Sequence record: PV287714.1
DNA length: 64,000 bases
From: Escherichia phage HMD-9
Strand: one strand, 5' to 3'
Each line of letters opens with the position of its first letter. The stretch's first letter is position 1. The notes beneath the pieces are model-generated. The model searched no databases, was not told where the DNA came from, and saw only the letters and a list, made by a program, of their open reading frames with translations. Made by a program: the position numbers and the translations under genes. Positions 49,332 through 54,777 of this stretch are shown piece by piece.

Positions 49332-50021
49332 ATGGCTGATTTAAAAGTAGGTTCAACTGTGGGTGGATCTGTCATTTGGCATCAAGGAAATTTTCCATTG
49401 AATTCAGCCGGTGACGATGTACTCTATAAATCATTTAAAATATATTCAGAATATAATAAACCGCAGGCAGCTGATAACGATTTCGTTTCTAAAGCTAATG
49501 GTGGCACAAAGTCTCAAGGTTTCCAAAAAGAAGTAGAATTTAAAGAAGGCGTTAAGATTTCTGCAACGTTTTCTGGAGGTTCAGACCTGAATGGGTTATA
49601 TTCTGGCAATGGAGATGGAGCTTCCAGAGAAAAAGCTAACATGGATTTACGTTCATGGTACGGCATTGGTATTTGGAACACATGCACAAGTGATGGGATA
49701 CAGGGACGCACAATCTGGTTTAATGCCAGGAGTGGTAAAGTTGAAACAGTTGGCAATATTGTTTCTGGCCAACAAGTTATTTCTAATGCTTCAGGACCGA
49801 CCGCCCCGGCACACTTAACTCGCAAAGATTATGTTGATGGAGCAATAAATATTGTTACAGCAAACGCAAACTCTAGGGTATTACGCTCTGGAGATACTAT
49901 GACAGGAAATTTAACTGCGCCAAACCTTTTTTCACAGAATCCTGCATCTCAACCCTCACATGTTCCACGATTTGATCAAATTGTTATTAAGGATTCTGTT
50001 CAAGATTTCGGCTATTATTAA
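49332..50021 (+). CDS. 36: long tail fibre distal subunit gp36
   Basis: 229 aa, position. Confidence 0.88.
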   Translation: MADLKVGSTVGGSVIWHQGNFPLNSAGDDVLYKSFKIYSEYNKPQAADNDFVSKANGGTKSQGFQKEVEFKEGVKISATFSGGSDLNGLYSGNGDGASREKANMDLRSWYGIGIWNTCTSDGIQGRTIWFNARSGKVETVGNIVSGQQVISNASGPTAPAHLTRKDYVDGAINIVTANANSRVLRSGDTMTGNLTAPNLFSQNPASQPSHVPRFDQIVIKDSVQDFGYY

Positions 50022-50029
50022 GAGGACTT

Positions 50030-53000
50030 ATGGCTACTTTAAAACAAATACAATTTAAAAGAAGCAAAACTGCAGGAGCACGTCCTGCCGCTTCAGTATT
50101 AGCCGAAGGTGAATTGGCTATAAACTTAAAAGACCGTGTACTTTTTACTAAAGACGATCAAGGGAATATCATTGATCTGGGTTTTGCTAAGGGCGGTAGT
50201 ATTGACGGGAATGTTATTCATAACGGTAACTACAACCAGACTGGCGATTACACTATAACCGGAGCTATTTCACAAAAGTCTGGACATTTTACTACTACCG
50301 GTAGTATAACAGCAACCGGTGATGTCACAGCAAAATCTCGCCTAATGACTGATATAGGCGAAGTTTTGGTACGTAGTAATGGTACCGCACATGTTCGATT
50401 CCAGGATTTGGCTGATGGACGCGAAAGAGCTATAATTTATTCTCAAAACCGTACTGGGAATACCAAGCAAATATTGAACGTTCGTGTTCAGGATTACACT
50501 AATTCAACATCTAATACTTTTGCATTCAACGGTGACGGTTTATTTTATGCCCCATCTATTTCCGGCGGAACATCAGTAAAATCTCCAGTAATTTATACCA
50601 ATACTGTTAATACAGACAGTAAGAATATTGGCGATTACGATATATCTTCATTAGCAAATAACACTCCATTGGCAGAAAGCGAAACGGCTATTAACCACCT
50701 CCGTGTTATGCGAAATGCTGTAGGATCTGGTATATTCCATGAAGTTAAAGATAATGATGGAATAACTTGGTATACCGGAGATGGCTTAGACACTTATCTT
50801 TGGTCGTTTACCTGGTCTGGTGGATTGAAAGCGGGTCATTCTATTTCTGTTGGTACTCCTGGTGGCAATAAAGGATACTCTGAATTAGGGACTGCTTCAA
50901 TTTCTCTTGGTGATAATGATACCGGGCTAAAATGGCATCAGGATGGATATTTCCAAACAGTAAACAACGGGACAAGAACTTTCACCTATGGCCCTACCGA
51001 AACACAAAGCCTTAGAAAAATGGTTATGGGTTATTCTCCGGACGGGATTCTTATGACAACGCCGCCGACAGAAAACTATGCATTAGCCACTGTTGTTACT
51101 TATCATGATAATAACGCGTATGGTGACGGTCAGACTCTTTTAGGATATTATCAAGGCGGTAATTATCATCACTATTTCCGCGGTAAGGGTACCACAAACA
51201 TTAATACTCATGGCGGTTTGTTAGTTACTCCAGGTGATATTAATGTTATCGGTGGTTCGGTTAATATCGATGGTATAAATAATTCTTCTACCCTGCTATT
51301 TAGAGGCAACACGACCGGAGCTAGTTCAGTTGATAATATGACAATTTCCGTTTGGGGCAATACGTTTACTAATCCTAGTGTAGGTAATCGTAAAAACGTC
51401 ATGGAAATTTCTGATGCAACTAGCTGGATGAGCTATATTCAAAGACTTACAACTGGTGAAGTAGAAATGAACGTTAACGGTTCATTTGAATCATCTGGTG
51501 TTACTGCTGGACATAGAGGAGTTCACACAACAGGCGAAATTTCATCCGGAGCAGTGAATGCGCTTCGCATTTGGAATGCAGATTATGGAGTCATTTTCCG
51601 TCGTTCAGAAAACAGTCTTCATATTATTCCGACTGCTTACGGTGAAGGTAAAAATGGAAATATCGGTCCACTTCGCCCGTTCCGTATGGACCTTGATACA
51701 GGTAAAGTAAGTATTCCTAATATGGATACTACTAATTTGATTATGAACCCAAATGGTTCTATTAAATTTACTGGTCATGGTAATGGTACCGAGCTGTATG
51801 GTAATCAGTATGGGCAAGCGGCACCGATTTATCAAGAAATTAATAATGATTCCGCTTCTGCTTATATTCCAATTATAAAACAGAAATACTTAAATGGCGG
51901 TATAATGTGGTCTATGGGAACAGAACTTAATTCCGGTGATTTTGTAATCCATAGAATTAATGCCGCCGGTGATGAAAACCGAATTATTAAATTTGATAGT
52001 AACTGCGTTCCGCATTTCCCGGATAACGTGCTGGTTGGCGGTGATATTAACATGAAAGGCGCGATGACTTTTGACGCCGGACGTTTAGGATCACGAGATT
52101 ATTTTAAATTTAACCATTGGGGTGATAGTAATAATGCTCGTGATAACATCATCCAGTTAGAAGATAGTCAAGGCGCTCATTTTTCCACTGAACGTACTTT
52201 AGCGACTGGTGCAATTAAAACTCGTTTCTTTGGCGAAACATTTACTGATGGTACATTATACCTAAATCAGATGAATAATAGCTCTGAACGATTCTCTATC
52301 AGAAATTGGGGAAATTCAGAAGTTGGTCGCGCGGCAGTGATGGAAGTCGGTGATTCCAAAGGTTATCACTTCTATACGGAACGCAGGACAGATAATAGTT
52401 TGGCGTTTGATGTTGCTGGCGTTTTTACCGTGCATGGACCTACCGGGATCACTATCAAAAACTCTGCTGGTGCACGACATATCTGGTTTAGAGATGATAG
52501 CGATGCAGAAAAGTCTGTTATCTGGGCTACAGATGAGGGTATTTTACATATTCGCAATAACTATGGTGGAGCAGTTGCACATCGCTTCCAGGGCGCGATG
52601 TTTAAACTTAACGGACGTGTTCCTTATGCCGCAGATCAAGGAATTATTCGTGGTGAGGTTTCTGGCGGTGCTTATGTGGATTGGAGAAATCGCCCTGCTG
52701 GTTTGTTGCTTGACTGTCAACAAAGCGTTGATAGTGCTCATGCCATTTGGAAAGCGGTTGATTGGGGGCGTAACTACATCGCTGCTTTGGATGTTCATAT
52801 GCCAGGTAATAGTAATAATACTGCAGCAGCGATTCTCCATGTTCAAGATGCTAATTATCAATTCCATGCAAGTGGAGAATTTCATGCCACTGGTAACGGA
52901 AGCTTTAACGATGTTTATATTCGATCAGACCGTCGCCTCAAAGAAAACATCGAAGATTATATAGGAAATGCAACTGATTTAATCGGTAAACTGAAAGTTA

Positions 53001-53278
53001 AAACCTACGATAAAGTTAAATCATTATCCGACCGTGAAATTATCGGTCATGAGATTGGCATTATCGCACAGGATTTACAAGAAATATTACCAGAAGCGAT
53101 TAATATTTCGAAAATTGGCAATCTTGATAAACCAGACGAAGTTCTGACAATTTCTAACTCTGCTGTGAATGCTCTTTTAATTAAGGCCATTCAGGAAATG
53201 AGTGAAGAAATTAAAGAATTGAAAACGCCTTTCTTCACTAAAATTGCTCGCAAAATTGGTAAATACTTTAAATTCTAA
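50030..53278 (+). CDS. 37: long tail fibre distal subunit gp37 with C-terminal chaperone-like extension
   Basis: 1082 aa; last ~117 aa begin [10 protein letters not shown]. Confidence 0.92.
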
Positions 53279-53310
53279 TAACAAGGGGCATTGCCCCTTT
53301 GGAGATAATT

Positions 53311-54090
53311 ATGTCAGTAGTTGGTGTTCCTGGTTGGATTGGTAGTTCATCCGTAAATGAAACAGGACAACGATGGATGAGTCAAGCGGCTGGTCAATTA
53401 AGATTAGGTGTTCCTTGCTGGATGAGTCAATTTGCAGGTCGCTCAAGAGAAATTATTCACACACTTGGAGCAGACCATAACTTCAATGGTCAATGGTTCC
53501 GAGATAGATGTTTTGAGGCAGGTAGTACACCTATAGTGTTTAATATCACTGGAGATTTAGTATCATATTCTAAAGATGTTCCTTTATTCTTCATGTACGG
53601 AGATACACCGAATGAATATGTTCAGTTGAATATACATGGCGTAACGATGTATGGTCGTGGCGGGAATGGCGGTAGCAATAGTCCCGGATCGGCTGGGGGT
53701 CATTGTATTCAAAATGATATTGGTGGAAGACTAAGAATTAATAATGGCGGAGCTATTGCAGGCGGCGGTGGCGGTGGCGGCGGCGGTAACTACGGTAGAC
53801 TATCATTTGGTGGTGGTGGTGGTCGCCCATTCGGTGCTGGCGGGTCTTCCTCTCATATGGGTGCTGGTGCAACCGCTGGCACCATTTCCGCTCCGGGTGC
53901 AGGATCTGTCGGTGAGGGGTCTCTTTGGGTATATACAGGCGGGAATGGCGGTGAAGTTGGCTCAGCAGGAGGTAGATGTAATATTCATGGGAACGGTACA
54001 GAATATAACGGTGGTGCTGCTGGTTATGCCGTCATAGGGTCTACACCGACATGGCAAAACGTTGGAGCAATATATGGTCCAAGAGTATAA
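53311..54090 (+). CDS. 38: T2-type tail fibre adhesin gp38 (glycine-rich motifs)
   Basis: 259 aa from MSVVGVPGW; poly-Gly runs; track start 53299 is non-ATG. Confidence 0.88.
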
Positions 54091-54120
54091 TTTGAATAAA
54101 TATCCTTAAAAGGAGGGTCT

Positions 54121-54777
54121 ATGGCAGCACCTAGAATATCATTTTCGCCCTCTGATATTCTATTTGGTGTTCTAGATCGCTTGTTCAAAGATAACGCTAC
54201 CGGGAAGGTTCTTGCTTCCCGAGTAGCTGTCGTAATTCTTTTGTTTATAATGGCGATTGTTTGGTATAGGGGAGATAGTTTCTTTGAGTACTATAAGCAA
54301 TCAAAGTATGAAACATACAGTGAAATTATTGAAAAGGAAAGAAATGCACGCTTTGAATCTGTCGCCCTGGAACAACTCCAGATAGTTCATATATCATCTG
54401 AGGCAGACTTTAGTGCGGTGTATTCTTTCCGCCCTAAAAACTTAAACTATTTTGTTGATATTATAGCATATGAAGGAAAATTACCTTCAACAATAAGCGA
54501 AAAATCACTTGGAGGATATCCTGTTGATAAAACTATGGATGAATATACAGTTCATTTAAATGGACGTCATTATTATTCCGACTCAAAATTTGCTTTTTTA
54601 CCAACTAAAAAGCCTACTCCCGAAATAAATTACATGTACAGTTGTCCATATTTCAATTTGGATAATATCTATGCTGGAACAATAACCATGTACTGGTATA
54701 GAAATGATCATATAAGTAATGACCGCCTTGAATCAATATGTTCCCAGGCGGCCAGAATATTAGGAAGGGCTAAATAA
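54121..54777 (+). CDS. t: holin T
   Basis: 218 aa; recognised as T4 holin; single TMD then large C-terminal domain. Confidence 0.95.
   Translation: MAAPRISFSPSDILFGVLDRLFKDNATGKVLASRVAVVILLFIMAIVWYRGDSFFEYYKQSKYETYSEIIEKERNARFESVALEQLQIVHISSEADFSAVYSFRPKNLNYFVDIIAYEGKLPSTISEKSLGGYPVDKTMDEYTVHLNGRHYYSDSKFAFLPTKKPTPEINYMYSCPYFNLDNIYAGTITMYWYRNDHISNDRLESICSQAARILGRAK

Follow-up and report, generated by a model that had tools for sequence, protein, structure and literature searches.

Gene 38 of Escherichia phage HMD-9 is predicted to encode a T2/T6-type gp38 adhesin directed at OmpA, with glycine runs that behave as a length-constrained scaffold

INTRODUCTION

In phage S16, three conserved tryptophan residues of the tail fiber adhesin gp38 are inserted into pockets on the gp37 trimer, and helix 3 of gp38 is the central polyglycine-II (PGII) helix of a sandwich domain with a saturating hydrogen-bond network (PMC6851490). 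Glycine-rich motifs (GRMs) alternate with hypervariable segments (HVSs) in adhesins of this kind, and the HVSs have a role in specificity (PMC3157838; PMC12032242). T4 differs from this arrangement: its fiber tip is gp37 itself, and its gp38 is a tail fiber assembly chaperone and no component of the virion. Apart from the name, T4 gp38 is unrelated to adhesin gp38 according to published statements (PMC6851490).

Several phages with gp38 adhesins have been linked to the outer membrane protein OmpA. IME340 was found to require OmpA in four ways: resistant mutants were sequenced, ompA was cleanly deleted, the deletion was complemented, and adsorption was assayed (PMC6499177). EV240 was assigned to OmpA/HepI by RB-TnSeq, and its gp38, when transplanted, turned a Tsx phage to OmpA (bioRxiv 10.64898/2026.04.02.716166). 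FL12, FL18, and FL20 are likewise OmpA dependent, and their adhesins were described as narrow-host-range "type 2" adhesins by Lutz et al. 2025 (PMC12032242).

Here, we analyzed gene 38 (g38) of Escherichia phage HMD-9 in a window of 64,000 nucleotides, the whole stretch of DNA under study (sequence record PV287714.1). A preliminary description, made from the letters alone, had proposed a T2-type adhesin of about 259 amino acids and not the T4 chaperone, and had regarded the GGC/GGT runs that encode its glycine stretches as substrates for slippage and recombination that could change the host range.

RESULTS

The reading frame of g38 (Table 1) comprises 259 codons between the ATG and a stop codon at 54088-54090, which is the product length given in the preliminary description. 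A Shine-Dalgarno sequence (GGAG, 53301-53304) lies 6 nt 5' of the ATG; the list of open reading frames (ORFs) opens the frame at a TTG (53299), and all relatives are annotated with the ATG start. At the nucleotide level, g38 is 97% identical to genes labelled receptor-recognising protein or tail fibre adhesin. The gene order g36-g37-g38-holin t is the canonical late-gene order of T-even phages, and the wider window is 94 to 95% identical over about 24 kb to Tequatrovirus genomes such as those of SP1, JE01, and IME340. The relatives of g37 are annotated as long tail fiber distal subunit; its product matches Gp34_trimer and carries, at its C-terminal end (amino acids [aa] 966 to 1023; E = 1.6e-13), a Peptidase_S74 domain, an intramolecular chaperone. 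The position of g38 directly after this S74-bearing gp37 and before holin t corresponds to the T2-type arrangement, in which gp38 would cap a processed gp37, the cleavage being predicted.

Table 1 Features of the gene 38 region of phage HMD-9 (positions of the window)
Feature	Position	Strand	Basis
g36	49332-50021		Pfam Phage_T4_gp36
g37, distal long-tail-fibre subunit, 1082 aa; fibre predicted to be capped by gp38	50030-53278	+	Pfam Peptidase_S74, Gp34_trimer
g38, 259-aa gp38, predicted long-tail-fibre tip adhesin (receptor-recognising protein)	53311-54090 (stop included)	+	ORF, Pfam, PDB, AF2
N-terminal attachment domain, aa 1-42, with W9, W22, and W37; predicted to dock on gp37 trimer tip	53311-53436	+	Pfam Gp38_N
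Receptor-binding domain, aa 47-259, predicted beta-helix and PGII sandwich, GRMs alternating with HVS loops	53449-54087	+	Pfam GP38, Foldseek
Putative recombination breakpoint directly 5' of the G9 run	53749-53759	+	Informative sites versus JE01 and SF2-1
G9 run, aa 151-159, mixed GGC/GGT; probable central PGII helix (S16 helix 3)	53761-53787	+	S16 alignment
HVS2 loop NYGRLSF, aa 160-166, between both glycine runs; probably specificity determining	53788-53808	+	Alignments
G5 run, aa 167-171, five GGT, followed by invariant RPFG motif	53809-53823	+	Repeat and alignment
Holin gene t, directly 3' of g38	54121-54777	+	Pfam Phage_holin_T, E = 6e-118

A 97-aa, Ala/Val-rich ORF in another frame (53744-54037) and ORFs on the minus strand over g38 were considered as genes and rejected as by-products of the GGN repeats. 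A scan for promoters and terminators between 53100 and 54300 gave none above the shuffled expectation. A GC-rich hairpin (AAGGGGC-ATT-GCCCCTT, 53283-53299) is located between the stop codon of g37 (53276-53278) and the Shine-Dalgarno sequence of g38; it has no T-run and was not scored as a terminator. All eight relatives examined have a hairpin at this junction, and that of FL12 has a wholly different stem and a UUCG loop; hence, the structure and not its sequence is conserved. A role of the hairpin in mRNA stability or translational coupling is possible. In front of the g38 start, four relatives (L003, L004, L006, and L008, positions ~290 to 303) read GGAGTATAAATTATG, whereas HMD-9 (53300-53313) reads GGAGATAATTATG, a stretch that is 2 nt shorter than in the relatives and does not contain the TATAAAT string.

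Two Pfam families matched gp38 above the gathering score, Gp38_N (PF21721; 67.2 bits; E = 1.2e-18; aa 1 to 42) and GP38 (PF05268; 232.9 bits with a cut-off of 25; E = 4.9e-69; aa 47 to 259, covering profile positions 1 to 218 of 218). No further Pfam family was found at an E value of ≤0.01, and an NCBIfam scan of gp38 gave no family match. Sequence searches of the PDB returned only two distinct entries, the receptor-binding domain of PP01 gp38 (9V85; E = 5e-78) and gp38 as solved in the S16 tip complex with gp37 (6F45_D; E = 4e-53); a relationship to T4 gp38 or to any other tail fiber assembly protein was looked for in Pfam and PDB and was not found. An AlphaFold2 (AF2) model, built on 41 homologues, had a mean pLDDT of 86.5, with low values for the N-terminal 50 residues (47 to 59 for the attachment domain), as expected since this domain folds onto its partner, gp37. 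In Foldseek, the model matched gp38 structures alone, namely 9V85 (E = 1.8e-25; TM score, 0.77/0.86; rmsd, 2.0 Å) and 6F45_D (E = 5.7e-21), and the next match had an E value of >2. By homology to these two crystal structures, gp38 is predicted to fold into a beta-helix with a PGII sandwich.

The details of the sequence agree with this assignment. W9, W22, and W37 align with the tryptophan residues of S16 gp38, and W9 and W22 are invariant among the 41 homologues. Also invariant in this set are G115-R116-G117-G118, G129-G130, G154 to G156, and G167 to G171-R172-P173, with variable blocks in between, which is the alternation of GRMs and HVSs known as the Trojet 2011 architecture. Both Pfam and the two solved structures thus bear out the proposal of a T2-type (T2/T6-type) adhesin with GRMs between variable segments, as well as the statement that this is not the T4 chaperone. 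Gene 38 most probably encodes a receptor-recognising gp38 adhesin of a known kind and a known structure class, placed in the virion by homology.

For comparison with named systems, we used a homologue set of 120 cluster representatives and the translated genes of ten close relatives. The named phages among the cluster representatives were Ac3 (86% identity), T6 (84%; Tsx), M1 (77%), and JSE (66%). The best full-length DNA matches were JE01 and LYE-01 (97.2% each), SP1 (96.9%), and IME340 (96.8%; MH051916), which share with HMD-9 the g37-g38-t context and a gp38 of 259 aa with four HVSs and both glycine runs. In the proteins of JE01, SP1, and IME340, only positions 2 and 14 of the attachment domain differ (serine here, alanine there), and aa 15 to 259, including all HVSs, are identical. 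Relative to IME340, 23 codon differences are synonymous and 2 are non-synonymous, which indicates strong purifying selection. The order of the codons in the G9 run also differs from that of IME340, and the 3' end of the gp37 gene diverges by about 5% of its nucleotides.

The type 2 adhesins of EV240, FL12, FL18, FL20, and kvi (Lutz et al. 2025, PMC12032242) have the same HVS lengths and GRM layout. Identities over aa 111 to 259 were 94% for FL12, 88.6% for FL20, and 85.2% for FL18, and EV240 differs at 12 of 259 aa. HMD-9 has Y161, S165, G184, S193, W206-V207, and I225 where the other type 2 adhesins have R161, (V165), S184, Y193, S206-A207, and T225; Y161 together with S165 sets this sub-variant apart from EV240 and FL12, the latter having R161 and V165. 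A second group, comprising the gp38 proteins of T6 (Tsx), Bas37/KarlGJung, and SF2-1, is nearly identical in the N-terminal half and the GRMs (84% overall) but differs in HVS2, which is 5 aa shorter in HMD-9 (NYGRLSF versus YYSPFPQMRLTF), in HVS3, which has a 4-aa insertion (EGSL) in HMD-9, and in the receptor. More distant are the receptor-binding domain of PP01 gp38 (an OmpC binder) and the S16 tip, with which HMD-9 gp38 would share the beta-helix and PGII sandwich (TM score, 0.74 to 0.86) and shares the polyglycine helix 3 and the GGGGGRP(F/L)G motif; identity is only 44 to 65%, there is no relationship between the HVS loops, and these two use a different receptor, OmpC.

All four HVSs of HMD-9 gp38 match adhesins of phages that require OmpA. 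With a specificity domain identical to that of IME340, gp38 is predicted to be a type 2 OmpA adhesin, and the sub-variant with Y161, S165, W206-V207, and I225 has already been receptor tested in IME340; this specificity domain is thus on record, with its receptor, in GenBank phages. IME340 was tested on BL21(DE3), and the effective host range could also depend on the background of the host (OmpA loop variants, O-antigen).

The gp38 proteins of the Krischvirus phages FL20 and kvi (L002 and L007) are 97% identical to that of the Tequatrovirus HMD-9 in the N-terminal 110 aa, and their genes are not followed by holin t. This likeness fits the published view of horizontal movement of gp38 between genera (bioRxiv 10.64898/2026.04.02.716166).

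Glycine accounts for 65 of the 259 residues of gp38 (25%). Besides the G9 and G5 runs, GGNGG motifs are present at aa 117 to 121 and 210 to 214. When the residues of the protein were shuffled 100,000 times with the composition preserved, a run of at least nine glycines arose in 0.05% of cases. The G9 run was found exactly where the preliminary description had placed it, and as the mixture of GGC and GGT that it had named; the second repeat is equally real, but in frame, it starts one nucleotide later than proposed (53808-53822 reads [TGG]5). As trinucleotide repeats, the two differ. G5 is a perfect 15-nt (GGT)5, whereas G9 (GGC GGC GGT GGC GGT GGC GGC GGC GGT) is interrupted, with 82% matches in TRF and (GGC)3 as its longest perfect stretch. 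At the protein level, aa 151 to 158 of the G9 run align with helix 3 of S16 gp38 (151-GGGGGGGG-158), and its residues G152, G153, and G157 are conserved in at least 90% of the 41 homologues.

The run-length statistics rest on the ten annotated phage genes and the 120 protein cluster representatives; an IMG/VR scan gave 13 loci, most of which matched the N-terminal half only, and these were left out. Each of the ten close DNA relatives has nine glycines in the first run and five in the second, and the GGC/GGT/GGA codons within the runs differ synonymously. Of the cluster representatives, 113 have the G-run/RP[FLWY]G motif, and in 109 of these, the second run is five glycines long. The length of the first run varies between 5 and 9 when distant subfamilies are compared and is always 9 within the T6/OmpA-type-2 group. 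Third-position diversity was 0.365 in the run codons (53761-53823), compared to 0.220 in other invariant glycine codons and 0.152 at other four-fold sites, and the excess in the run codons had a permutation p of ~0.02 with 10 related, non-independent sequences.

Departures from these lengths are rare and mostly singleton deletion variants, and repeat-number polymorphism among close relatives was not found. Among the 120 cluster representatives, the two runs are joined into one in four sequences (P0022, P0027, P0030, and P0116); for the first three, the loss of HVS2 was seen by inspection of the alignment, and for P0116, the fusion was deduced from matching run lengths. In P0070, run 1 is reduced to 4 glycines instead of 9. 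The DNA of P0027 and P0030 was read, and both junctions fall within GGC/GGT microhomology. The Logan contigs L011 (4001-4717), L012 (4001-4651), and L013 (318-1079) have either fused runs with loss of HVS2 or a first run shortened from 9 to 4. The contig of P0027 (L011) also has an internally shortened gp37 of 477 aa, so that an artefact or a defective genome is possible, whereas gp37 of L012 is full length. Such run-fusion and shortened variants may come from defective phages, from deletion alleles carried by a minority, or from errors of assembly. A further sequence, P0034 (303 aa; NCBI "tail fiber domain-containing protein [Escherichia coli]"), is a chimera with a gp38 N-terminal half up to GGGGGG and a gp37-like Peptidase_S74 C-terminal segment, and its junction is at the polyglycine stretch.

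The 22 to 25 nucleotide differences between g38 and its counterparts in the IME340/JE01/SP1/LYE-01 group are almost all synonymous and lie in two clusters (53314-53406 and 53637-53748), which suggests a different recombination history; from 53760 to the end of g38 and into t, differences are absent. The patch from 53625 to 53765 is closest to the T6-like Shigella phages SF2-1/CT01 (97.2%, compared to 85.7% for the whole gene). With JE01 and SF2-1 as references, 7 SF2-1-like informative sites in a row (53637-53748) are followed by 104 JE01-like sites (53760-54249), which places a breakpoint between the two blocks, directly 5' of the G9 run (Table 1). This pattern indicates gene-conversion-like mosaicism inside gene 38. 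According to Tetart (1996/98), as far as this work is quoted in PMC3157838, exchanges in gp38 lie in or near conserved motifs, and in a CM8xEV240 recombinant, the exchange extends from HVS2 onwards (bioRxiv 10.64898/2026.04.02.716166); the breakpoint 5' of G9 agrees with both. The recombination part of the preliminary description is in line with the literature: a putative breakpoint lies next to the first run, and exchanges near such motifs are documented elsewhere, but a single breakpoint cannot single out the GGY repeat over generally conserved flanking DNA as the preferred crossover site.

DISCUSSION

We consider it very probable that HMD-9 gp38 is an OmpA-binding adhesin that caps gp37 and uses its glycine runs as a scaffold, with the location in the virion, the cleavage of gp37, and the contact with OmpA carried over from homologues. 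In our model, gp38 would be a monomeric adhesin on the trimeric gp37 long tail fiber of a Tequatrovirus (T-even phage). Self-cleavage of the C-terminal S74 chaperone domain of gp37 would expose the gp37 tip, into which the N-terminal domain of gp38 (aa 1 to 42, with W9, W22, and W37) would plug. The remainder of gp38 would form a beta-helix that carries a three-layer PGII sandwich made of the GRMs, with G9 as the central helix. The HVS loops between the GRMs would point away from the fiber and bind the extracellular loops of E. coli OmpA, and this reversible binding would be the first step of adsorption. Selection would hold the length of the glycine runs constant, making them a scaffold and not a switch, and specificity would shift when HVS loops acquire substitutions and when HVS modules are swapped by homologous recombination at breakpoints within or beside conserved motifs.

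The name of the gene invites the assumption that gp38 is an assembly chaperone of the T4 type and no part of the virion. We see practically no room for it, for the gene name and the place after g37 are all that the two proteins have in common. A legacy label, "distal long tail fiber assembly catalyst," is still kept for the homologues of T6 and JSE in some records, but the whole length of HMD-9 gp38 is covered by matches to the adhesin family and to adhesins of solved structure, gp37 has its own S74 intramolecular chaperone, Pfam offers no other family at the threshold used, and the PDB relatives are all adhesins; lacking any chaperone-type match, the designation "T4-type gp38" was excluded. 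A further question is whether gp38 could recognize Tsx or some other receptor instead of OmpA, or several receptors, given that few changes in the HVSs can switch specificity. HMD-9 gp38 is 84% identical to that of the Tsx user T6, and it has been suggested that type 2 OmpA adhesins are recent adaptations from Tsx binders (PMC12032242). PST also needs OmpA, although a few residues are all that separate it from T6 (PMC3157838), and a single substitution, Q206L, switches OmpF to OmpW (bioRxiv 10.64898/2026.04.02.716166). In addition, the sub-variant found here departs from EV240 at Y161, W206, V207, I225, and other HVS positions. Against this, the whole specificity domain is that of IME340, for which deletion of ompA abolishes infection of BL21(DE3) and complementation restores it, and HVS2 and HVS3 are clearly unlike those of T6 and Bas37, owing to the 5-aa deletion and the 4-aa insertion, respectively. 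A different receptor is therefore very improbable, and we retain OmpA as the predicted receptor.

The glycine runs themselves can be read in different ways. One would see in them a mutator of the contingency type, in which frequent slippage alters the run length or fuses the runs and so gives new host ranges. The perfect (GGT)5 of G5, the four sequences with fused runs, the shortened first run of P0070, and the junctions in GGC/GGT microhomology all speak for slippage, and the higher third-position diversity in the run codons could reflect compensated gain and loss of units. On the other hand, the lengths of 9 and 5 are invariant in the ten close relatives, a G5 length of 5 is kept in nearly all homologues with the motif, G9 is interrupted, and the variants are rare and mostly come from single-sequence clusters of automatic assemblies. 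Host-range mutants of Ox2 and K3 from the Henning lab reportedly carry mostly HVS substitutions. Published host-range switches are point changes in HVSs, such as Q206L, or module exchanges, and not changes of run length (PMC3157838; bioRxiv 10.64898/2026.04.02.716166). Moreover, when GRM2 to GRM4 and HVS1 to HVS3 of T6 gp38 were deleted individually by Trojet et al., no viable phage was found among 220 screened (PMC3157838). We regard a slippage-driven host-range switch as very unlikely, and this part of the preliminary description is mostly not supported; at best, slippage is a minor source of mostly deleterious deletions. A milder reading holds that the DNA of the runs turns over fast, with GGY units gained and lost in a compensated manner, and that the runs act as crossover points of HVS modules; selection would fix the length, and the repeats would still favor mosaicism of the adhesin and, now and then, deletions from one run to the other. 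It fits the raised synonymous diversity in the runs, the breakpoint at 53749-53759, and the fusion variants in public assemblies, and we hold it to be unlikely. The comparison of lengths and codons argues for glycine runs that are a length-constrained structural scaffold or lattice, with no proven role as a host-range switch.

In sum, the primary receptor of HMD-9 would be readable from the sequence of gene 38: OmpA, by way of a type 2 adhesin of narrower host range. Such a reading would help in the design of phage cocktails and in anticipating resistance via ompA mutations. The glycine runs resemble slippage tracts, yet they appear to behave as a length-constrained lattice, which corrects a tempting inference from the repeats.
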